Virus record (IMG/VR): IMGVR_UViG_3300045988_073130
Location: 64,069-96,068 of that record
Origin: a virus
Length of the DNA stretch: 32,000 nucleotides
Reading direction: 5' to 3' (one strand)
Positions 10,354 to 26,367 of the stretch are shown here, piece by piece. A model generated the notes under the pieces. The model saw only the letters and a program-made list of their open reading frames with translations. It searched no databases and was not told the DNA's origin. How positions within the stretch are numbered: the first letter of the stretch is position 1; each line of letters starts with the position of its first letter. A program made the position numbers and the translations under genes.

Positions 10354-10479
10354 TTGACAAGTGAGCATTTTGGTGGTAAACTGGACTTGTCCAGTAGGAC
10401 AGAGACAAAAGCACGGCACTTTGAAAATTAAAAAAATTTCAAAAAAGGTATTGACAAACTGCTAAAGGTTTGATACAAT
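10354..10479 (+). promoter_or_regulatory. Two tandem strong sigma-A-type promoters with A-rich upstream elements
   Basis: TTGACA (10354-10359), N17, TAAACT (10377-10382); and TTGACA (10451-10456), N17, TACAAT (10474-10479). Both are preceded by TTTCAAAAAA. A TTGTGCAA-N-TGCACAA palindrome lies upstream at about 10285-10302. Confidence 0.65.
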
Positions 10480-11877: not shown

Positions 11878-11916
11878 ATGACTGGCAATCTGCACAAAGA
11901 TTGCCAGTCATTTTTA
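11878..11916 (+). terminator. Rho-independent terminator
   Basis: 13-bp stem (ATGACTGGCAATC with GATTGCCAGTCAT) followed by TTTTT. Confidence 0.75.
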
Positions 11917-11943
11917 TGCACTTTTCCATATTGACTTTTCGCC

Positions 11944-12080
11944 GGGCCGCCAGCGTGCGCCGCGGCCCAAATTTTTATTTATCCGGCAGTTTCAACAATT
12001 ATATGATCGAAAGTCTGTGCAATTCGACAAAAGATTTTCTCCCGAAATTACTTGACATTCCTCTTGTCATGTGTTATTAT
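11944..12080 (+). promoter_or_regulatory. Repeated regulatory cassette, copy A
   Basis: GC hairpin GGGCCGC/GCGGCCC (11944-11968) plus T-tract; half-sites TTCAACAA (11991) and TGTGCAA (12016); TCTCCCGAAA (12038); TTGACA (12052), N17, TATTAT (12075). Followed by a CTTGTCC..GGACAAG leader hairpin and the SD AAAGGAAGTAAA. Confidence 0.6.
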
Positions 12081-12134
12081 ATACTTGTCCAGAGGGACAA
12101 GGTCACAAAAAGAATTTGAAAGGAAGTAAAAGAA

Positions 12135-12374
12135 ATGACTTTGAAAATGATTGCAGGTCTGCTTTCTCCGCTCGCAGAAGATACCATGTTCTTTGACGGG
12201 GAAGGGGTCGAAATTATCAATGAGAATACTCAAGCTCATTACCATGAGCTACCTGATCACAAGATAACCCTGGGAGGAGACGTCATTGAGGCGTCTAAGG
12301 AATGGGTGCTGGGACTTCCGGTAACTGGCATTAAAGCAAGAGGCAACAATCTAATCATTTATGTAGATGGTTAA
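12135..12374 (+). CDS. Hypothetical protein (79 aa)
   Basis: Track ORF; SD AAAGGAAGTAAA; TAA stop. An 11-bp hairpin (12385-12413) follows. Confidence 0.6.
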   Translation: MTLKMIAGLLSPLAEDTMFFDGEGVEIINENTQAHYHELPDHKITLGGDVIEASKEWVLGLPVTGIKARGNNLIIYVDG

Positions 12375-12437
12375 GAAAACCTGCGGGAGTGGAGGTTTAT
12401 GGCCTCCACTCCCCACGATAAAAAAGGAGAAATAAAT

Positions 12438-12653
12438 ATGATTGCTGTTATTAAATTTGAAAGTGCAGAAAAGTCTGTGGAGTTTGGAAACACAATTTGT
12501 AATATGGCTGGTTGGTGTTTGAGTCATCCTCTCAATTCCAATGTTACCGGCTGTGTTCGTACGCTTGATTTTAATGCCGGCGACAAGCAAGATAGAGCCT
12601 TATATAATTATCTGCTAAAAATTGGAGCTTTCGAGGAGGTGGAATTAAAGTGA
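12438..12653 (+). CDS. Hypothetical protein (71 aa)
   Basis: ATG follows AAAAGGAGA. The track start at 12399 lies inside the preceding hairpin. Confidence 0.55.
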   Translation: MIAVIKFESAEKSVEFGNTICNMAGWCLSHPLNSNVTGCVRTLDFNAGDKQDRALYNYLLKIGAFEEVELK

Positions 12654-12781
12654 GTATTGAGCGTTTACCGCACACATATCCCATTGGCTCCACTGTTTGG
12701 ACAAATAAGGGATATGGCACAGTTCTACTTCACATTGGTAAATACCATCTGGTTTGGTTACAGAGATTAGGGTTGGCGTAA
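12650..12781 (+). CDS. Hypothetical small protein (43 aa)
   Basis: GTG start overlaps the previous stop (GTGA) and follows GAGGAGG. TAA stop. Confidence 0.4.
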   Translation: MSIERLPHTYPIGSTVWTNKGYGTVLLHIGKYHLVWLQRLGLA

Positions 12782-12854
12782 TGCCGGCCCTATTGATTTT
12801 TTCAAAAAAATATATTATAATAATTATAGAAAAATAAAGAAAGGAGTTTTTCTA

Positions 12855-12992
12855 ATGACCTTAGAAGTGCTGAAAGCACTCGCGGTTATTTTGGAGTTCT
12901 GTTTGAACTAGGATTCTTGTAAAAATTGTCCTATGTCTCAGTTCTGCCAGAAATGCCTTGCGAGTGGTAAATGTTCCTTCCGATTGTTCTAA
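12855..12992 (+). CDS. Small Cys-rich protein (45 aa) with 1 in-frame TAG
   Basis: TATAAT-type promoter and AAAGGAG RBS. Translation MTLEVLKALAVILEFCLN-Q-DSCKNCPMSQFCQKCLASGKC; TAG at 12909-12911; TAA stop. Confidence 0.45.
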
Positions 12993-13058
12993 ATCGGCGA
13001 TTCCCGTGATGGAGTCGTTTTTCGCACGAGCCTAGGTCACTAGAATTTATTTATCAAA

Positions 13059-13292
13059 ATGCAAGAAACTACTTTCTCTCGCAAATTAGATTCAAGTGGT
13101 AGAATTATGATTCCGATTCGCTTGCGTGAACAAATGGGACTTACTTCCGGTTAGGAATACTATTTTACTACTATGGTAAAAGATGGTAGAAAATATATCT
13201 GTATTGACTGCGGATCGGTTGATTCCTCGCTTGAAGAAGCTATGAAAATTATCCAAGCAAACGGATTAAAGATTGTTGAAAATGCCGATTGA
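13059..13292 (+). CDS. AbrB/SpoVT (MazE-like swapped-hairpin) DNA-binding protein with 1 in-frame TAG
   Basis: The N-terminus reads RKLDSSGRIMIPIRLREQMGLTSG-Q-EYYF, which matches the AbrB-type fold. TAG at 13152-13154 is in frame; TGA stop at 13290-13292. No clear SD. Confidence 0.55.
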
Positions 13293-13334
13293 CTTCTCAA
13301 AAGAAAGGGAGTTGTTGGTATGCAGAAATTAATG

Positions 13335-13367
13335 ACCTCCTGAAATTCAGGAGGTTCTTTTTTTTTA
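13335..13367 (+). terminator. Rho-independent terminator
   Basis: ACCTCCTGA pairs with TCAGGAGGT, followed by a T-run of about 10. Confidence 0.75.
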
Positions 13368-13376
13368 TTCGTTCGC

Positions 13377-13493
13377 CCGGCCGTGCACCACAGGCGCGGC
13401 CGGAATTTTTTATCAAGAGGCAATTTGCACAATTTTCCAGCCGAAATTTTGTGCAGTTTGCCTCTTGTTTTCTATCCCGAAATCTGATATACT
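13377..13493 (+). promoter_or_regulatory. Repeated regulatory cassette, copy B
   Basis: GC hairpin CCGGCCG/CGGCCGG (13377-13403) plus T-tract; TTGCACAA (13425-13432), N16, TTGTGCA (13449-13455); TTGTTT (13465), N17 containing TCCCGAAA, TATACT (13488). Confidence 0.6.
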
Positions 13494-13525
13494 TTAATCA
13501 ACCTAAAGAAAGGAAGTAAATCAAA

Positions 13526-13990
13526 ATGAAAAAGATGCTCTGCTTTGATATGGATGGAACAATCGCTGACCTGTACGGCGTGGATGATTGGTTAAAAGAT
13601 TTAATGAATGAAAATCCCTATCCATATACAGTCGCCAAACCTCTTTGCGATATAGAAGAATTGAATACCGTTCTTAATAAACTCATTGAGCAGGGCTGGG
13701 AAATTCGGGTTATCAGTTGGCTTGCAAAAGACAGTTCTAACTCATATAAAACTGCTGTTCGTGACGCAAAGCGCACTTGGCTTGCAAAATACAACTTCCC
13801 CGCACATAAAGTCCACCTTGTGGAATATGGCACAACAAAAGCAAATTGTGTGCGGAAACACTTTGAGCCGGGAATTAGCAATTTCATTTTGATTGATGAT
13901 AATAAAAGTGTGCGGGATGGCTGGCATTTAGGGGAAACAATCGAGCCACATGAAGATTTACCTACGGCCTTATGGCGACTGGTAGAGTAA
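13526..13990 (+). CDS. HAD-superfamily phosphatase, 5'(3')-deoxyribonucleotidase-like
   Basis: Contains the DxDGT motif (CFDMDGTIAD) at the N-terminus and LIDDN late in the protein. Size is 154 aa. SD AAAGGAAGTAAA. Confidence 0.6.
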   Translation: MKKMLCFDMDGTIADLYGVDDWLKDLMNENPYPYTVAKPLCDIEELNTVLNKLIEQGWEIRVISWLAKDSSNSYKTAVRDAKRTWLAKYNFPAHKVHLVEYGTTKANCVRKHFEPGISNFILIDDNKSVRDGWHLGETIEPHEDLPTALWRLVE

Positions 13991-14030
13991 TCCACCAGTC
14001 AATCTTAAAATAAGAAAGGAAGTTTTGTAA

Positions 14031-14219
14031 ATGAAGATTAGAAAGGTTAATAGGCTTATCCTCAGCGAGGAAGAGCGACAAGTATTGAAAAATGCGTCCA
14101 TTCTCATTGGTCAAATTGATCAGGTTATGGCCGACAATGAAATTGATGACGATATTTCGCTTGAAGATTTGAGCTATTGGCTTGACGAGATTATCAATAA
14201 AGAATATCTTGGATATTAA
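14031..14219 (+). CDS. Hypothetical acidic protein (62 aa)
   Basis: Track ORF; GAAAGGAAG RBS; TAA stop inside the terminator stem. Confidence 0.55.
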   Translation: MKIRKVNRLILSEEERQVLKNASILIGQIDQVMADNEIDDDISLEDLSYWLDEIINKEYLGY

Positions 14220-14243
14220 GAGGGCTTCGGCCCTCTTATTTTT
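14218..14243 (+). terminator. Rho-independent terminator
   Basis: AGAGGGC-TTCG-GCCCTCT followed by TTTTT. Confidence 0.75.
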
Positions 14244-14263
14244 ACTCTTTAATATCGTTTGGG

Positions 14264-14380
14264 CGGCTCGCTGGCGCACGCGGCGAGCCGAGTTTTTGTT
14301 TTTGTCGATGTTGCACAATTTTGGCTTGCAAATTTTGTGCAATTTGCCATCTTGTAATTATCCCGAAAGTATGGTATTAT
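14264..14380 (+). promoter_or_regulatory. Repeated regulatory cassette, copy C
   Basis: GC hairpin CGGCTCG/CGAGCCG (14264-14290) plus TTTTT; TTGCACAA (14311-14318), N16, TTGTGCAA (14335-14342); TTGTAA (14352), N17 containing TCCCGAAA, TATTAT (14375). Confidence 0.6.
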
Positions 14381-14545
14381 ATATTTGTCAAGAGGGGAAG
14401 GCCAAGAAATCAAGAGGTCGCGAACTCTTAGAAAGTAAAGGAAGTAAATTTATATTGTGTCGTAAGTCGAGTGAACGCCGTTAGAATAGGCCGTTCTAAT
14501 GCCCAGTAGCTTGCAGTAAATCGCAATAAAAATTTCCTTTTCCTC

Positions 14546-14574
14546 TTGACATCAAGCATGATATGTGCTATAAT
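14546..14574 (+). promoter_or_regulatory. Consensus sigma-A promoter
   Basis: TTGACA (14546-14551), N17, TATAAT (14569-14574), 33 nt upstream of the exonuclease start. Confidence 0.7.
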
Positions 14575-14606
14575 AAACTCAACAAGAGGAAAGGAAGTCA
14601 AAGATT

Positions 14607-15398
14607 ATGATTGATAAGCGTAGACACTATGTTTTGGTGGTTGATACTGAAACTGCTAACACACTGACTGAAACTGACGAAAACGGCAAAGCCCGCATGG
14701 ATATGAGTTGCGTTCTTGTCTATGATTGCGGATGGGCGGTAGTGGATACCAAGGGCAATATTTATGAAACTGCCAGTTTTGTAAATAGGGACATTTTCAA
14801 CGATGAGCGGGATCTCATGCGGACTGCTTATTATAATTGGAAAATTCCCCGCTATATTGAGGAACTGCGGGCCGGCACTCGTAAAATGGCTACCACTTAT
14901 GAAATCCGCCAAGCTATGCTCAATACCATTGAGCGATACGGCATTAAGGAAGTTGCGGCTTATAATGCCAGATTTGACGATAATGCCTTGAGAGTTACAC
15001 AGCGTTATGTGACCTACTCCAAGTGGCGTTATTGGTTCCCGTTTGACAGCGTGGAGATTTGGGATATTATGAAGATGACACAGGATGTTATCTGCAATAT
15101 GCCCACTTATAAGAAATTCTGTCAGGAAAACGGATATGTCCAGGCTAATGGTGTCCCCCGCAAGACTGCGGAAATCGTGTGGCGGTTTATCTCTGGCAAT
15201 ACCGATTTTGAAGAAAGTCATACGGGGCTTGAGGATGTTCTGATTGAGGCGGAAATCATGTGGTATTGTATGCGTCAGCATAAGCCCATGAGAAAGGCCC
15301 TGTATGAGAATAAAAGAGAGTTTCCGTCTATGACAGATTTTCAGCGTCAACTTTCCGCAAGTTTGAAAAATAATCCGACAATTCGGGTAGGGGCTTAA
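14607..15398 (+). CDS. DEDDh-family 3'-5' exonuclease (DnaQ/RNase T-like)
   Basis: Exo I VVDTET, Exo II AYNARFD, Exo III ESHTGLEDV (H-x4-D). Length 263 aa. The large antisense ORF 14598..15350 is its shadow. Confidence 0.7.
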   Translation: MIDKRRHYVLVVDTETANTLTETDENGKARMDMSCVLVYDCGWAVVDTKGNIYETASFVNRDIFNDERDLMRTAYYNWKIPRYIEELRAGTRKMATTYEIRQAMLNTIERYGIKEVAAYNARFDDNALRVTQRYVTYSKWRYWFPFDSVEIWDIMKMTQDVICNMPTYKKFCQENGYVQANGVPRKTAEIVWRFISGNTDFEESHTGLEDVLIEAEIMWYCMRQHKPMRKALYENKREFPSMTDFQRQLSASLKNNPTIRVGA

Positions 15399-15425
15399 AG
15401 CCCCGCCCGATAGAAAGGAAAAGAA

Positions 15426-15611
15426 ATGTTTTCAAGACAGTTTACCACTAACCATCTTGACCCCGATTATGTCTATGAGGTTATTCACCTTATGCAGCGA
15501 CTGGGATGGTTTGTTGATGGGCCGACAGAAACCGGACTTTTGACTGTAAATATCCTTCTGGATGATATGCCGCTTTGGGATATGGTTTATAGTTATATGA
15601 TTGATATTTAA
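15426..15611 (+). CDS. Hypothetical protein (61 aa)
   Basis: Track ORF; GAAAGGAAAAG RBS; TAA stop followed by a terminator. Confidence 0.55.
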   Translation: MFSRQFTTNHLDPDYVYEVIHLMQRLGWFVDGPTETGLLTVNILLDDMPLWDMVYSYMIDI

Positions 15612-15641
15612 GAGGGCTTTACAGCCCTCTTATTTTTTTTT
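15610..15641 (+). terminator. Rho-independent terminator
   Basis: AGAGGGC-TTTACA-GCCCTCT followed by a T-run of 9. Confidence 0.75.
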
Positions 15642-15657
15642 ATATCTAAAAGGTCGA

Positions 15658-15817
15658 CGGCCCGCGGATGGCTGACGCGGGCCGAATTTTTCAATGGTAA
15701 TGTTGCACAAAAATTTCGTCCCGTTTTTGTGCAGAATTTTGCACAAAAACTCTCTCCCAAAATTCCGATTTTTTGTGCAATTCGACGCTTGCAATCTGCT
15801 TTTGCTTGTGGTAAAAT
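15658..15817 (+). promoter_or_regulatory. Repeated regulatory cassette, copy D (double operator)
   Basis: GC hairpin CGGCCCGCG/CGCGGGCCG (15658-15684) plus TTTTT. Two inverted-repeat pairs: TTGCACAA 15703 with TTGTGCA 15727, and TTGCACAA 15739 with TTGTGCAA 15773. TCTCCCAAAA at 15753. TTGCAA (15789), N17, TAAAAT (15812). Confidence 0.6.
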
Positions 15818-15888
15818 ACATTCAGAAAGTGAGAGAGACGAACGGCAGACAGTGACAGCGAATTTCTCAAAAATCTTTCAAAAACCTC

Positions 15889-16089
15889 TTGACAAGCCTT
15901 TGAAGATGTGCTATAATAAGTACAGAAAACAAGGCAATGTACCTTGAAAATTAAATAAAAAGGGCTTGACAAACTTTCCAAAGTGTGTTACACTATAAGG
16001 GAGGTTGAGAGGGCAAACAAGTAAAGGGCAAAAGTTCTTGAAAAAAGTTTGAAAAACCTCTTGACAAGTACCAAATAGTGTGGTACAAT
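15889..16089 (+). promoter_or_regulatory. Three tandem strong sigma-A promoters
   Basis: TTGACA 15889, N17, TATAAT 15912. TTGACA 15966, N17, TACACT 15989. TTGACA 16061, N17, TACAAT 16084. The first and third share the upstream motif AAAAACCTC. Confidence 0.7.
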
Positions 16090-16137
16090 ATAATCAAAGG
16101 ACAAGGACAGTCCTAAAAACCAGAAAGGATGTATATT

Positions 16138-16539
16138 ATGGACGAGAAGAAAATCCGCATTACTAAGGCCCAGCGTTTTGAAGACATTAAGGCCCTCTTG
16201 ACTGACGGCGAGGTAAAGTATGGCACTACCATCGAGGTGGCTATTACTATCATTGACCATGAGCTGGAGCTTCTGCGTAAGAAGAATAGCTCTAGCGGTG
16301 ACAAGAAGCTGACTCCCACCCAGCAGGAGAACGAGAATTTTAAGGAGCAGATTATGGAGTATCTGGCTGATCTGGATGCCGATACCGATGGCGTGACCTG
16401 CACGGAAATTTTTAAGGCTATTCCTGATCTGACGGCCTATTCTAACCAGAAGGTCGCCGCCCTTGTGCGGCAGTTGAAACTCGATGGTCGAGTGGTCTGC
16501 ACGGAAAAGAAGGGCAAGTCCCTTTTTAAGATGGCGTAA
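16138..16539 (+). CDS. Putative winged-helix DNA-binding protein (133 aa), paralog of 25927..26367
   Basis: ATG follows AAAGGA. It shares an architecture with 25927..26367: a helical N-terminal part containing HE[LV]ELL, then a C-terminal T..EI.KA......Q.V.A...QL segment. Confidence 0.5.
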   Translation: MDEKKIRITKAQRFEDIKALLTDGEVKYGTTIEVAITIIDHELELLRKKNSSSGDKKLTPTQQENENFKEQIMEYLADLDADTDGVTCTEIFKAIPDLTAYSNQKVAALVRQLKLDGRVVCTEKKGKSLFKMA

Positions 16540-16547
16540 CCCCGTAT

Positions 16548-16572
16548 AGGGCGGGGTGAAAATCCCCGCCCT
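16548..16572 (+). terminator. 9-bp GC hairpin, probable terminator
   Basis: AGGGCGGGG-TGAAAAT-CCCCGCCCT. No clear T-tract. Confidence 0.5.
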
Positions 16573-16596
16573 AACTTATAATATGGGGGTGATATT

Positions 16597-16995
16597 ATAT
16601 CCAGTCGTATTAGTGACGCTGAACGGATTGCAAGGTATAAAGCCCTGCAATTAACGCCGGAAGAGGAGGCAGATTTATTGGCCTATGATAAAGCGGTAGA
16701 GGCTGATAAAAAGACTAAATACGATTTACCGCCAGAAAAGGCGAAAATCGCTCAAAAGTTTGCCCATGCTGGAACGCGCAAACAGCCAACCGCATATAAG
16801 TTCACTACACGGCAACGCAAGCCAAACGCCACGAAAGGCGGTATAATTGCGGAATTGGCAGAGTTTTTGGAAAAAAACAGTCAATTCTCTATCGCTGACT
16901 TGTCTATTACTAACAAGGAAAGACAGATTGCGTTTTCTATTGGTGGGGATAGTTTCGAGTTGACGCTTGTGCAAAAGCGTAAACCGAAGAAATAA
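16597..16995 (+). CDS. Hypothetical basic protein; start codon unresolved (no in-frame ATG/GTG, first TTG at 16678)
   Basis: The frame is open from 16582 and reads protein-like (SSRISDAERIARYKALQLTPEEEADLL) before the track's TTG at 16678. GGGGGTGA lies at 16585-16592, with ATT at 16594 and ATA at 16597 just after it. TAA stop at 16993-16995. Confidence 0.4.
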   Translation: MSSRISDAERIARYKALQLTPEEEADLLAYDKAVEADKKTKYDLPPEKAKIAQKFAHAGTRKQPTAYKFTTRQRKPNATKGGIIAELAEFLEKNSQFSIADLSITNKERQIAFSIGGDSFELTLVQKRKPKK

Positions 16996-16997
16996 CG

Positions 16998-17027
16998 TGG
17001 TAGGGTCGGCCTACCCCGGCCCTACCA
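16998..17027 (+). terminator. Hairpin with two alternative pairings
   Basis: TGGTAGGG (16998-17005) can pair with CCCTACCA (17020-17027), or GGTAGG with CCTACC (17010-17015). Confidence 0.45.
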
Positions 17028-17079
17028 GAAAAGAGGTAAGTTATAGTTAGTTTACAGACAAGGGGAAAAGAGTTTCTAT

Positions 17080-17402
17080 ATGTCGGACATTATATCGACA
17101 AAAAGGGGCGCTATATTCTCAAGATTGGCACGACAAATGATCTTGAGCGCAGAGCCGCAGAACATACGAGAAATTATAAGCGGGCTCCAGATTACACCAT
17201 GCCGGAAGATGGTTCCTTTATCTATGATTGGCATATCAAACTTTCCAAGTATAATACCCTCCGATATGAGGATGTAAACCGGACTTTGTGGCAGAATATG
17301 GGAATTGGTCGTTTTATCAGAAATGACCGTTTCTTGTGCGACACTCCTCCGGCCATGGTTACGGTGGTTATTCGCAAGGCATACCCGATAATTCTCAATT
17401 AA
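17080..17402 (+). CDS. T5orf172/GIY-YIG-like domain protein whose ATG and catalytic-domain frame differ by one nucleotide
   Basis: ATG at 17080 follows AAAAGAG and is in frame 1. The recognisable domain (KKGRYILKIGTTNDLERRAAEH...) is in frame 0 from about 17079 to TAA 17400-17402 and has no canonical start before 17199. The two frames meet at the run A5G4 (17100-17108). Confidence 0.45.
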
Positions 17403-17406
17403 AGAA

Positions 17407-17435
17407 AAATCTCCCCTTATGGGGAGATTTTTTTT
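17407..17435 (+). terminator. Rho-independent terminator
   Basis: AAATCTCCCC-TTAT-GGGGAGATTT followed by TTTTT. Confidence 0.8.
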
Positions 17436-17450
17436 ACGCAAAATTTTGGG

Positions 17451-17567
17451 CGGACCGCTTGCGTGCGCCGCGGTCCGATTTTTTCTTCTATTGTCATTTT
17501 CAACAATTTTGAATTGAAAATCTGTGCAACTTGACAGCTTGACTTTCTCCCAAAAATGTGGTATCAT
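17451..17567 (+). promoter_or_regulatory. Repeated regulatory cassette, copy E
   Basis: GC hairpin CGGACCGC/GCGGTCCG (17451-17477) plus TTTTTT; TTCAACAA (17499), N16, TGTGCAA (17523); TTGACT (17539), N17 containing TCTCCCAAAA, TATCAT (17562). Confidence 0.6.
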
Positions 17568-17593
17568 TTAACTATGGAAAGGAGATAAAAGAA

Positions 17594-18046
17594 ATGGAAA
17601 GTCTGAAACAATTTCGTGTTAATTTTCAAGTTACCTTTTGGTGTGAAGGTCGCAAGGGTATTTTCTCTAAGAAGCCTTATAAATTTACGGTATCATTTTG
17701 TGATGATATTATACTTTCTACCTTTTTAATCAATGCTCGAACCGAAAAAGAAGCGGTTAAAACGGGGAAAAACTATGTTGAAAATATAGTTCAATGTTGG
17801 GTTGAACAGTCAGAAGAAAATCAAGCCACAGGCGAATATATGATTTTAACTGGAAATATGGCTGATACAAAAAGATTTGAGTGGTCGCCTAAAATCTACG
17901 CCATTACCGGGTATGAAATTAAATTTATTTCTTGTGAAATGGTTTGCGACTGGGCAAAAGAAAGGGTCGAGAGAGCGGCAAGAGAACTGACTATGGAGCA
18001 ATTTAAGCAAGTTTTTAGTGAAATTCCGGCTGAGATTTTTCATTAA
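17594..18046 (+). CDS. Hypothetical protein (150 aa)
   Basis: ATG follows AAAGGAGA; the track start at 17558 overlaps the -10 element. TAA stop. Confidence 0.6.
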   Translation: MESLKQFRVNFQVTFWCEGRKGIFSKKPYKFTVSFCDDIILSTFLINARTEKEAVKTGKNYVENIVQCWVEQSEENQATGEYMILTGNMADTKRFEWSPKIYAITGYEIKFISCEMVCDWAKERVERAARELTMEQFKQVFSEIPAEIFH

Positions 18047-18063
18047 AGAAAGGAGATTTTTAG

Positions 18064-18315
18064 ATGGTTGATATTGATTTCAACAAACTGAATGACGAGG
18101 AGTTGCAATGGTTGAGTGCTACAGCCTATAAAGAAGTGGCACTTAGAAAACAAAAAGCGCGAGAGAAAGATTGGAATAGTCTAATCGAAGAGATAGACGA
18201 GTATTGTAAAAAGTATGGAGAAATAACTATCGTTGAATATGGAGATAAATTTGTTCTTGAATTTCCGATACGGTGTAACTGTATAGGAGAAATCAATTTA
18301 GAAAACGAGGATTAA
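18064..18315 (+). CDS. Hypothetical protein (83 aa)
   Basis: Track ORF; AAAGGAGA RBS; TAA stop followed by a terminator. Confidence 0.6.
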   Translation: MVDIDFNKLNDEELQWLSATAYKEVALRKQKAREKDWNSLIEEIDEYCKKYGEITIVEYGDKFVLEFPIRCNCIGEINLENED

Positions 18316-18317
18316 GA

Positions 18318-18344
18318 AAAGAGAGGCTTTGGCCTCTCTTTTTA
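18318..18344 (+). terminator. Rho-independent terminator
   Basis: AGAGAGGC-TTTG-GCCTCTCT followed by TTTTT. Confidence 0.75.
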
Positions 18345-18365
18345 TTTTATATTTTCTAAACTCGA

Positions 18366-18397
18366 CGGGCCGGTCGCGGGCGACTCGGCCCGAATTT
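18366..18397 (+). repeat. Sixth copy (F) of the GC-rich cassette hairpin, followed by different boxes
   Basis: CGGGCCG/CGGCCCG, with the same TCGACGG left flank as copy D. The downstream boxes are CATAGCGCAA, TCATAGCAA, CATAACGCAA instead of TTGCACAA. Confidence 0.55.
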
Positions 18398-19130
18398 CCC
18401 CGATCGGACCATAGCGCAAAATTTTCATAGCAACTTGGCCATAACGCAACTTCATAGCAATTTTCCCAAAATTCATAACGCCATCTTTCAAACACCGATC
18501 GGCCCTACTTTACTTCTTTCTTTATCTAGTTCCGATCGGTCCAGCAATATTGGCTCTCTCGTCCAATTTTTTATAATAAAAATCTTAAAATTGTCAAGTA
18601 TTCACAGTACCAAAACTTTCTAAAATACAACTAGCAATAGCAAAGATATAGCTATGAAAAACAAATACGACCAGAGATTTCTTTCGCGGAACCGATCGGT
18701 TTAACACGATTTTATGATAAAAAATAGCTCAAAAATAGAGATTTTAGCTAGATAAACCGATCGGCCCGCGATCTTTTACCTCTTGTTATCGCAAAATATA
18801 ACAAAAAACCTCTAAAATCTTGCAAAAATGCGCGTTTTTCTAACAAATTTACTTAAAAATAAGCAAAAAATGCCTCGTTTTTCTCAAAATTTCTTGATAT
18901 TCACAGAATTAAAACCATTAAAGATACAGCAAACAATAGTAAAGATGTTGCTAACTATTTGAAAAGGAAAAATCTTTTCCGCGGGATTCCGTTAAAGCGA
19001 TCTTTTTATCTAGACCCGATCGGTTCGACAATATATAAAAAATATAATATAATATATACATAAGATAAAGAAAAGGAGGATTTTAGTTTAAGAAGCATCA
19101 TAACGCTTTTTCTAACTAAAAGAACTTATT

Positions 19131-21125: not shown

Positions 21126-21265
21126 TGTCCTAAAATTTGTTAAACTTTTTTCTAAAATTATAAACAATAGAACAATCAATACATTAGAAAATTTTGGACA
21201 AGTCATTAGAAAAAATCGGACACTTTATTAGAAATTTTTGGACACTCGTTAGAAAATTTTGGACA
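21126..21265. promoter_or_regulatory. Operator array: four tandem TTAGAAAATTTTGGACA repeats plus one inverted copy
   Basis: Direct copies at 21184, 21206, 21228 and 21249 (spacing 22, 22, 21 bp). The inverted copy at 21126-21143 overlaps the -35 region of a minus-strand TGnTATAAT promoter upstream of the RHH gene. Confidence 0.65.
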
Positions 21266-21443
21266 AAAATACCTCTATGACCATTTTATTAAAATTACCG
21301 CGGAATTGTCAATTTCTCTGCCTAAAAAATTCCCGCATCCCCGCGAGAAATTATGACGGTTCGTTATAATCCATAAGATTTACTTGCGTATCTTAATAAA
21401 ATATGGTAATATATTTATATAAATAAGAAAAGAGGTTTTACTT

Positions 21444-21987: not shown

Positions 21988-22039
21988 ATAAAATTATTAT
22001 ATAATATATATAGAAAGTTAAGGAAAGGAAGTAAAAGTT

Positions 22040-25926: not shown

Positions 25927-26367
25927 ATGTCTAACACTGTAAAGAAGCCCACAAAGAAAGCCAATTATAATGCTATTTTGAGCATTTTGTCTGTCGCTGA
26001 GAACGAGGGTCTTGTCCTCGAGTCCAGTGAAATTACTTATGATAGTCTGCGCGAGTTCGTCGAGCACGAGGTCGAGTTGCTTGACAATAAGGCTGCTGCT
26101 GCCGCTAAGAGAGCTGCTGCTAAGAAGGTCGAGGGAGATGCTCTTCGCGAGAAGATTTATGAAGTCCTTGGTGATGAGCCTATGACTATCAATGATATTG
26201 TAAAGGCTTTGAACGACGAGGACATTTCTGCTCAGATGGTTACTGCTCGTCTAACCCAGCTTGCTTCTCCTGAGGTCAATCGTGTTGCTAAGGAGACCGT
26301 AAGTGTTCCTGCTTCCACTGAGGGTGGAAAGTCTAAGAAGCTCTCTGCTTACCGCAGAATTGGCTAA
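25927..26367 (+). CDS. Putative winged-helix DNA-binding protein (146 aa), paralog of 16138..16539
   Basis: Track ORF. Contains VEHEVELLDNK, an Ala/Lys-rich linker, and a C-terminal MTINDIVKAL...AQMVTARLTQL segment. Confidence 0.5.
   Translation: MSNTVKKPTKKANYNAILSILSVAENEGLVLESSEITYDSLREFVEHEVELLDNKAAAAAKRAAAKKVEGDALREKIYEVLGDEPMTINDIVKALNDEDISAQMVTARLTQLASPEVNRVAKETVSVPASTEGGKSKKLSAYRRIG

Follow-up and report, generated by a model that had tools for sequence, protein, structure and literature searches.

A composite intergenic cassette is present in six copies (A to F) that span 6.5 kb of a 32,000-nucleotide stretch of the virus record IMGVR_UViG_3300045988_073130 (IMG/VR; positions 64,069 to 96,068), the whole of which is referred to here as the window. 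On balance, this cassette is probably a portable joint between early transcription units that doubles as a recombination joint. Its parts and their order are those given in a preliminary description of this DNA: a terminator of the upstream gene (T1), a GC-rich hairpin followed by a T run (T2), an inverted repeat (the operator), a short box, and a sigma-A-like promoter. The preliminary description treated regulation and cassette shuffling as alternatives; the evidence presented below fits both at once.

A search for the hairpin with the pattern CSGNNCG-N13-CGNNCSG-RNTTT, with up to 2 mismatches allowed, matched six sites only (11943, 13377, 14264, 15658, 17451, and 18366), all of them on the plus strand, compared to 0.21 expected. 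These are the six copies that had been described, with the same stems. Each was also said to begin just after the terminator of the upstream gene, and a strongly folding T1 was found in all six (z, -3.9 to -9.8) as a separate terminator, overlapping the stop codon of the upstream gene or located past it, with T2 starting 10 to 30 nt later. The T1 sequences of cassettes C and D are alike. T2 has a stem of ~10 bp and a loop of ~7 nt followed by R-N-TTT, so that the T run starts 2 nt past the stem. All six T2 hairpins have the layout of intrinsic terminators (GC-rich stem, short loop, and T run 3′ on the coding strand), and those of B and C ranked at the top of a terminator scan of the window.

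Covariation was evaluated in an alignment of 22 nonidentical hairpins, the 6 from the window and 16 located at the same distance upstream of the operator in other phage contigs that have no detectable DNA similarity to the window. The alignment was almost gapless. In the 10-bp helix, 87.7% of the cells were paired, compared to 67.3 ± 2.3% in column shuffles (none of 500 reached the observed value) and 30 to 42% with slid partners, controls that ignore phylogeny. Compensatory changes on both sides were found in 8 of the 10 stem pairs, consistent with the stem covariation previously noted, and RNAalifold independently predicted the identical helix. The inner stem contained 14 G·U cells versus 1 A·C cell, and the T run was 3′ on the coding strand without exception, including in nine close relatives of the window phage. 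This asymmetry, together with the strand bias, argues for an RNA hairpin, or at least the folding of that one strand, and against a symmetric cruciform. Of the two forms that had been proposed for the hairpin, RNA or cruciform, RNA is thus favored, and the cruciform was rejected on these grounds. The most economical reading, and the most likely one, is that T2 is a predicted second intrinsic terminator.

The operator begins ~20 nt past T2 and is a 32-bp site with two-fold symmetry. The pattern TTGCACAA-N16-TTGTGCAA, with up to 3 mismatches, gave 6 matches in the window versus 0.20 expected. Matches were good at 10292, 13425, 14311, and 15703 and degenerate at 11991; the match at 11890 is probably due to chance. 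Half-sites also occur as the variant ATGCACAA...TTGTGCAT in place of TTGCACAA...TTGTGCAA. An N16 spacer with degenerate half-sites had been described for both A and E; this is correct for A, but the operator of E, TTCAACAA-N15-CTGTGCAA, has an N15 spacer. As had been reported, the inverted repeat is doubled in D, where the second half-site pair (15739/15773) is separated by N26, and it is missing from F, which has CATAGC-type direct repeats in its place. A supposed lone palindrome upstream of the promoter at 10354 is actually an extra half-site (10283) beside a complete operator (10292 to 10323), and these, with the downstream promoter, make up a seventh unit that lacks the hairpin. Binding of a dimeric factor is still the best reading of such a symmetric site, and the factor would presumably contact both half-sites. 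Literature searches on the half-site motif returned only unrelated eukaryotic or primer matches and no known bacterial regulator.

The box, T(C/A)TCCCRAAA, is present in all six copies and lies inside the promoter spacer in B, C, and E, in agreement with the preliminary description. As a loose pattern (TYTCCCRAAA), it was marginally enriched in the window (22 versus 14.6). In related phages, TCCCRAA was strand specific (19 versus 3), with peaks in the promoter spacer or within the N16 spacer of the operator.

Cassettes A to E have predicted sigma-A-type -35 and -10 elements with a TG extension, and the spacing between these elements and the operator is restricted. With strict promoter scoring, the -35 element started 8 to 9 nt (73 cases), 18 to 19 nt (22 cases), or 29 to 30 nt (14 cases) after the operator among the loci listed. 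In the window, the offset is 8 to 9 nt in B to E and 29 to 30 nt in A and in the unit at 10292. The predicted centers of the sites would be near -60, -70, and -81 on one face of the DNA, positions that are estimates. Because the offsets step by one helical turn, the operator is expected on the same DNA face as the polymerase, as for upstream activators. The -35 element is imperfect in all four window promoters at the offset of 8 to 9 nt, versus TTGACA in six of six promoters without an operator. Among the IMG/VR matches listed, which form an unbiased set, only 21 of 90 operator-linked promoters had TTGACA and 58 of 90 had the TG extension. The distance from the start of the hairpin to the start of the operator is 45 to 48 nt in the window, and the same distance was found in at least seven other loci, L049, L051, L095, L123, L128, L133, and L154 (L-numbers, L003 to L164, designate the related phage loci that were compared with the window). 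The identical Shine-Dalgarno (SD) sequence AAAGGAAGTAAA that had been associated with the cassettes is found in A, B, and C only, and it is not bound to them, as it also occurs outside any cassette at 22023 and 24213.

Table 1. Elements of the cassettes and adjoining features, in window coordinates (a dot marks a feature given without a strand)
Feature	Position	Strand	Remarks
Terminator of upstream gene	10054-10088	+	Opens partial seventh cassette without GC hairpin; stem 10054-10080 plus T run
Extra half-site TTGTGCAA and operator CTGCACAA-N16-TTGTGCAA	10283-10290; 10292-10323	.	-35 of promoter 10354 is 30 nt on
Two tandem near-consensus sigma-A promoters	10354-10479	+	10354-10382 and 10451-10479; ahead of gene 10533
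A, T1	11880-11918	+	Terminator of upstream gene; -29.6 kcal/mol, z -9.75
A, T2	11943-11981	+	GGGCCGC/GCGGCCC plus T-tract
A, degenerate operator	11991-12022	.	TTCAACAA-N16-CTGTGCAA; 3 mismatches
A, box and promoter	12038-12047; 12052-12080	+	Box TCTCCCGAAA; TTGACA-17-TATTAT, TG; SD, ATG 12135
B, T1	13334-13367	+	
B, T2	13377-13411	+	10-bp stem, 7-nt loop, then AATTTTTT
B, operator	13425-13456	.	TTGCACAA-N16-TTGTGCAG
B, promoter	13465-13493	+	TTGTTT-17-TATACT, TG; box TATCCCGAAA 13473-13482 in spacer
Gene behind B	ATG 13526		HAD-like nucleotidase
C, T1	14217-14243	+	
C, T2	14264-14298	+	Hairpin
C, operator	14311-14342	.	Exact TTGCACAA-N16-TTGTGCAA
C, promoter	14352-14380	+	TTGTAA-17-TATTAT, TG; box TATCCCGAAA 14359-14368 in spacer
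D, T1	15609-15641	+	
D, T2	15658-15692	+	CGGCCCGCG/CGCGGGCCG
D, double operator	15703-15780	.	15703-15734 (N16); half-sites 15739, 15773 (N26), box TCTCCCAAAA 15753-15762 between
D, promoter	15789-15817	+	TTGCAA-17-TAAAAT, TG; 8 nt past second operator
Three tandem near-consensus promoters	15889-16089	+	Without operator; directly before winged-helix gene
Winged-helix gene	16138-16539	+	Candidate operator binder; paralogue 25927-26367
Partner gene of winged-helix gene	16594-16995	+	Apparent start ATT or ATA
E, T1	17405-17440	+	
E, T2	17451-17488	+	CGGACCGC/GCGGTCCG
E, degenerate operator	17499-17529	.	TTCAACAA-N15-CTGTGCAA
E, promoter	17539-17567	+	TTGACT-17-TATCAT, TG; box TCTCCCAAAA 17546-17555 in spacer; ATG 17594
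F, T1	18316-18350	+	
F, T2	18366-18400	+	CGGGCCG/CGGCCCG, short T run

The same arrangement was detected well beyond the window. A scan of IMG/VR for the exact operator yielded at least 118 loci, some of which are chance matches, and many of these had the full layout of a GC hairpin with a T run, the operator, a TTGACA-like -35 element, and TATAAT or TATACT. Dozens of related gut Clostridia contigs have in common a hairpin, 45 to 48 nt, the operator, 8 to 9 nt, and the -35 element. When species-representative genomes were scanned for the operator with the -35 element, 37 stretches were found, almost all of them in metagenome-assembled genomes (MAGs) of gut Clostridia (Acutalibacteraceae, Oscillospiraceae, Lachnospiraceae, Ruminococcus, Coprococcus, and Christensenella), and several were on contigs of 130 to 160 kb that resemble binned phages. 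Clustering of the open reading frames (ORFs) of all loci revealed early genes common to the window and at least 37 loci. These include the genes for the HAD-like nucleotidase (13526), an exonuclease-like protein (14607), the winged-helix proteins (16138 and 25927), and the partner protein (16594). Matching layouts thus indicate that the cassette is not specific to the window phage but recurs across a large clade of gut Clostridia phages, and the earlier proposal of a phage-specific regulon must be widened, as the same operator and spacing are found throughout this clade.

In order to compare the region among close relatives, nine were retrieved via homologues of the winged-helix protein (76 to 98% identity). 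The corresponding region of every relative contains three to six hairpins and four to eight operators, and synteny breakpoints in these relatives are consistent with the suggestion that the cassette is a shuffling unit. Between 11700 and 18450, 19 of 30 clusters of alignment ends fell in the cassettes, which cover 17% of the sequence (binomial P, ~2e-8), although this enrichment overstates the number of recombination events because the ends of high-scoring segment pairs partly reflect faster divergence of intergenic DNA. Breakpoints recurred at 10070 to 10074 and 15608 to 15616.

Three exchanges are clear-cut, and the best resolved of them is at operator B. L156, L157, L160, L163, and L164 have an extra module of 1.6 to 1.9 kb between two copies of the operator-B cassette, with three or four small genes, including an AbrB-like gene in L156 and L157, and with a T1 and a T2 of its own. 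Up to TTGCACAATTTT, the left copy matches cassette B of the window; from TTGCACAATTTT onward, the right copy does. This switch suggests that the single copy in the window is the product of recombination by a crossover within the left half-site; the crossover point consists of the left half-site plus TTTT. In L161 and L162, both module E genes are replaced by unrelated genes, and the replaced segment is bounded exactly by the start codon that follows cassette E and by T1 of F. L157 and L158 both lack module E, with the junction at hairpin F; L157 has an HNH endonuclease gene in place of the module, and its orthologue of hairpin F has kept the stem and has a different loop. Five small genes located between cassettes (10533, 11634, 14031, 15426, and 17594) were checked, and none had a homologue in the 155 other loci that were clustered.

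Free-standing HNH, GIY-YIG, and T5orf172 genes were found in varying intergenic slots (L157, 11442 to 12056; L158, 1689 to 2402; window, 2452 to 2808 and 17043 to 17402). The possibility that the cassette is an element like a miniature inverted-repeat transposable element or a repetitive extragenic palindrome was rejected, as no obvious terminal inverted repeats or target duplications were seen in the cassette sequences read, in which no dedicated test for them was made.

The winged-helix protein encoded at 16138 is the best candidate for the protein that would bind the operator, as its family accompanies the operator more consistently than any other. Among the loci listed, 36 copies of this gene were counted in 27 related loci; the next gene is usually a member of the 16594 family, and there are often two or three such pairs per locus. 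Sixteen of the 36 copies are located no more than 1.5 kb downstream of an operator, typically in an operon of exonuclease, winged-helix, and partner genes. In the AlphaFold model of the 16138 protein (pLDDT, 88.5), the last 70 residues can be superposed, with weak Foldseek E values, on the DNA-binding winged helices of Fur/PerR, ArsR/SmtB, MarR, and TubR. No Pfam, PHROG, or PDB sequence match was found for the family, which comprises 2,540 clusters at 50% identity and is a large, unannotated family of candidate regulators. The three near-consensus promoters without an operator that precede 16138 would fit a factor that is made early and then acts on the cassette promoters. Neither the partner gene (16594 to 16995) nor the T5orf172-domain gene (17043 to 17402) has ATG, GTG, or TTG at the expected start behind the SD sequence; both appear to start with ATT or ATA.

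A mechanism that accommodates these observations can be proposed. T1 and then T2 would together stop read-through and so insulate the next unit. A dimeric or tetrameric phage protein would bind the 32-bp operator, and a host sigma-A promoter with an extended -10 element and usually an imperfect -35 element would be placed past the operator by 8 to 9 bp or by one or two helical turns more, so that the bound protein could aid recruitment of polymerase from upstream, on the polymerase face. The candidate binder would be the winged-helix protein 16138 with its partner 16594, and 16138 itself would be driven by the three consensus promoters without an operator; in the relatives, the operon of this gene is usually found downstream of an operator. 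Short conserved stretches of the cassette would serve as crossover points at which whole modules (promoter, genes, T1, and T2) could be gained, lost, or swapped between phages. The imperfect -35 element, the extended -10 element, and the helically phased spacing of the operator favor activation, and the operator factor is more likely to be an activator of delayed-early units than a repressor.

Several observations weigh against this interpretation, in addition to the overstated breakpoint enrichment. The z values of single-sequence folds of T2 (-0.9 to -2.8) are modest compared to those of GC-rich shuffles of the same composition, and the T run of copy F is poor (TTT only). The winged-helix family is connected with the operator only by co-occurrence within loci of ~10 kb, and AbrB/SpoVT-like proteins recur as well (15 loci). 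The six cassettes are only ~53% identical overall, which leaves very short homology for ordinary homologous recombination. Many operator-linked promoters in the relatives are near consensus and would need no activator, and the spacing of operator and promoter would also fit a repressor or a host factor.

A serious rival, although the less likely one, is that the operator factor represses the early units, for example, by blocking contacts of the C-terminal domain of the polymerase alpha subunit with the UP element or by looping between paired operators, and that it is an AbrB-like or winged-helix protein made later. The near-consensus promoters of the relatives are in accord with repression, the doubled sites in cassette D and in the 10283 region would suit cooperative binding or looping, the AbrB/MazE-like gene at 13059 has an in-frame TAG and is behind a second class of promoter, and the lack of TAG in the genes behind the cassette promoters fits early expression. 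However, the operator is entirely upstream of the -35 element, without overlap with the core promoter, and offsets of about one turn, mostly imperfect -35 elements, and extended -10 elements are typical of upstream activation. It seems rather unlikely that the inverted repeat is read by a host protein common to gut Clostridia, with phages exploiting a host regulon, even though the half-sites are found in numerous contigs that differ widely in size, as well as in MAGs from several families of Clostridia, some phages interleave other phage-specific repeats in the N16 spacer while the half-sites stay constant, and one match in Coprococcus catus looks chromosomal. The sharing of early genes by at least 37 loci and the window phage means that much of the spread is that of one phage clade. 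Furthermore, the loci were picked by an exact pattern from a very large collection, and a rough estimate is that chance matches among these loci number on the order of 100. The Coprococcus locus and a group of temperate phages linked to a ribbon-helix-helix (RHH) protein are single lineages each, and the literature search on the motif turned up no known bacterial regulator.

That the GC hairpin acts as DNA, a cruciform or folded strand targeted by a structure-specific recombinase or nuclease in an integron-like array, is very unlikely. Such a role would agree with the conservation of structure and fixed geometry while the sequence varies, with the position of the hairpin at the 3′ end of each module, with some indel junctions at hairpins, with the kept stem and changed loop of hairpin F in L157, and with the T5orf172, HNH, and GIY-YIG genes that adjoin cassettes. 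Instead, an RNA terminator would account for the 14:1 ratio of G·U to A·C and for a T run that is invariably 3′ on the coding strand, the best-resolved crossover is in the operator rather than in the hairpin, and no integrase or recombinase was matched among the ~20 window proteins scanned with Pfam. A related proposal, that hairpin and operator form a protein-guided exchange site similar to attC of integrons, at which the winged-helix/16594 pair or a neighboring nuclease drives capture and excision of modules across the clade, appears quite unlikely; if it were true, module exchange would be independent of chance homologous recombination. The copies share order and spacing, as would functionless remnants of the tandem duplication of one intergenic region, yet this origin is extremely unlikely given the compensatory changes in the stems, the retention of the spacing though not of the intervening sequence, and the same layout in phages otherwise without detectable DNA similarity.

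The phages of this clade are uncultured, TAG-recoding phages of gut Clostridia with genomes of ~130 to 150 kb and early genes that are nearly all ORFans. On the minus strand from 1 to 6850, ORFs of 275 to 583 amino acids open only when TAG is read as sense, and these include late genes for the terminase, a portal-like protein, and others. From ~7000 on, there is a run of plus-strand genes that are mostly small and without annotation. Two small plus-strand genes (12856 to 12993 and 13059 to 13292, the latter AbrB/MazE-like) have one in-frame TAG apiece; no in-frame TAG was found in any gene behind a cassette promoter. The terminase is of the SPbeta/YonF type, with its best matches in Enterococcus, Geobacillus, and phAss-1-like phages: it is 62% identical to a protein of a human fecal contig, ~50% identical to those of Enterococcus phages of 134 to 142 kb, and 44% identical to that of the TAG-recoding gut phage phAss-1 (PMC10607447). 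Promoters, terminators, and repeats go unmentioned in the report on phAss-1 and related TAG-recoding phages (PMC10607447). A megablast search of 10 kb and a sensitive blastn search of one cassette against 50,697 phage records both gave no meaningful match. In the whole window, no Rfam family matched at the gathering score and no tRNA or tmRNA was detected, and the only hints of regulators in Pfam and PHROGs searches of ~20 window proteins were weak ones, to AbrB/MazE and winged-helix proteins.

Further promoter-like sequences accompany the cassettes. Clusters of near-consensus TTGACA-17-TATAAT promoters at 10354 to 10479, 14546 to 14574, and 15889 to 16089 have a common upstream AAAAA(N)TTGACAA and repeated leaders of ~45 nt, and the tandem copies are not separated by any ORF; in L158, one unit is missing (10362 to 10430). 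In L085, L102, L023, L003, L076, and others, a complete backward TTGACA-17-TATAAT promoter is located on the opposite strand between hairpin and operator and reads into the hairpin, which often looks bidirectional. Transcription from it would give an RNA of ~45 to 60 nt that is antisense to the 3′ end upstream. For the window, an active promoter of this kind was rejected, as B to E keep only 5-of-6 vestiges of the mirrored -35 element (TGTCAAT/G) that relatives have to the left of the operator and lack a -10 element. Past the promoter of cassette C, a segment of ~150 nt (14381 to 14545) has no convincing ORF, and a small hairpin (GAACGCC...GGCCGTTC) is located in it, ahead of the next promoter. 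This segment, possibly the source of a small RNA or leader peptide, is shortened or replaced in L160, L163, and L164. Just past the -10 element of cassette promoters, a recurrent leader motif or hairpin was found as TTGTCCagagGGACAA at 12085 to 12110 and 10383 to 10400 and as TTGTYCAAGGGGA in relatives (L004, L076, L085, and L109); it may be a 5′ stabilizer or a further control site.

Eight CCGATCGG palindromes were found, compared to 0.13 expected; six are in the ~620 bp of noncoding DNA after cassette F (18400 to 19023), and the others are at 8794 and 19712. The noncoding segment also has five CATA(G/A)C(GC)AA direct repeats (18409 to 18480), is variable among the relatives (breakpoints at 18508 and 19542), and may serve as an origin or as a site of partition or packaging. 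Between 20000 and 20335, about seven copies of an iteron of ~30 nt, TTTCATAGTATTnTCAGAATACCATGAAA, occur in both orientations in an arrangement that looks like an origin, and there is an RHH-type gene nearby in the relatives. A second, AT-rich promoter-like repeat, AAAAAATAtATTATAATAaTTATAGAAA, is followed by an SD sequence and lacks a -35 element and an operator; it occurs at 6846, 12795, 19027, 21384, 21979, 24180, 24508, 25476, 25863, 26614, 27441, and 29960. This repeat may mark a class of middle or late promoters or the use of a different polymerase or sigma factor. Three copies of TTAGAAAATTTTGGACAA were found within 83 bp (21184 to 21266).

The terminator pair, the operator, and the phased promoter would provide a directly testable code for early regions that are rich in ORFans. 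The cassette pattern could mark the boundaries of early units in metagenomic contigs and could furnish compact insulated expression units for Clostridia.

The cassette can be compared with several known systems. Tandem intrinsic terminators likewise have a GC-rich stem and then a T run on the sense strand, after a first terminator, but T2 keeps one length and one register to the next promoter in many phages, and its T run starts 2 nt past the stem and is short in F. The attC sites of integrons differ in that no integrase domain was found in the scanned window proteins and in that the best-resolved crossover is in the operator. The predicted centers near -60, -70, and -81, about one turn apart, and the weak -35 boxes are reminiscent of class I (CRP-type) activation. 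However, the site is 32 bp with half-sites 24 bp apart, compared to 22 bp for CRP, and no protein of the CRP/FNR family was found. The sites of phi29 p4 (CTTTTT-15 bp-AAAATG), from which p4 activates from upstream, are located between the early A2b/A2c and late A3 promoters (PMC3100819). The cassette operator resembles them in its two short inverted half-sites ~15 to 16 bp apart with A/T-rich inner flanks, in its location upstream of a sigma-A promoter (between divergent promoters in many relatives of the window phage), and in the small phage-encoded dimer that would be its expected reader. It differs in half-site sequence, in its candidate binder, which is a winged-helix protein rather than one with the N-hook of p4, and in its presence at every unit boundary, whereas p4 acts at one switch region.

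The closest parallel is with the PeSLs (promoter-early stem-loops) of T4-type phages, repeated composite motifs of a terminator and an early promoter in hyperplastic regions that flank ORFans and mediate modular shuffling (Arbiol et al. 2010, PMC2839356; Comeau et al. 2014, PMC4122927). As far as can be judged from the sequence, the cassette is likewise a small composite element, of a predicted terminator and promoter, repeated in the intergenic DNA of a variable early region rich in ORFans, with a host-sigma-type promoter beside a GC-rich stem-loop, and indels and replacements between close relatives end inside it. The operator that is helically phased with the promoter, the structure-conserved hairpin in a fixed register, and the preceding terminator are not described for PeSLs: the window cassette adds a 32-bp symmetric operator, its hairpin is fixed 45 to 48 nt upstream of that operator and follows a separate gene terminator, its stems vary by covariation, and the homology between copies is much shorter. 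In addition, PeSLs belong to T4-like phages of Gram-negative hosts, and the cassette belongs to a TAG-recoding gut Clostridia phage whose terminase is of the SPbeta/YonF type. Because phage lineage, host phylum, and sequence all differ, the cassette is not a PeSL by descent. Exchange of the PeSL type at regulatory joints would thus extend beyond T4-like phages to an unrelated lineage of Firmicute phages and would help to explain the turnover of their early genes.

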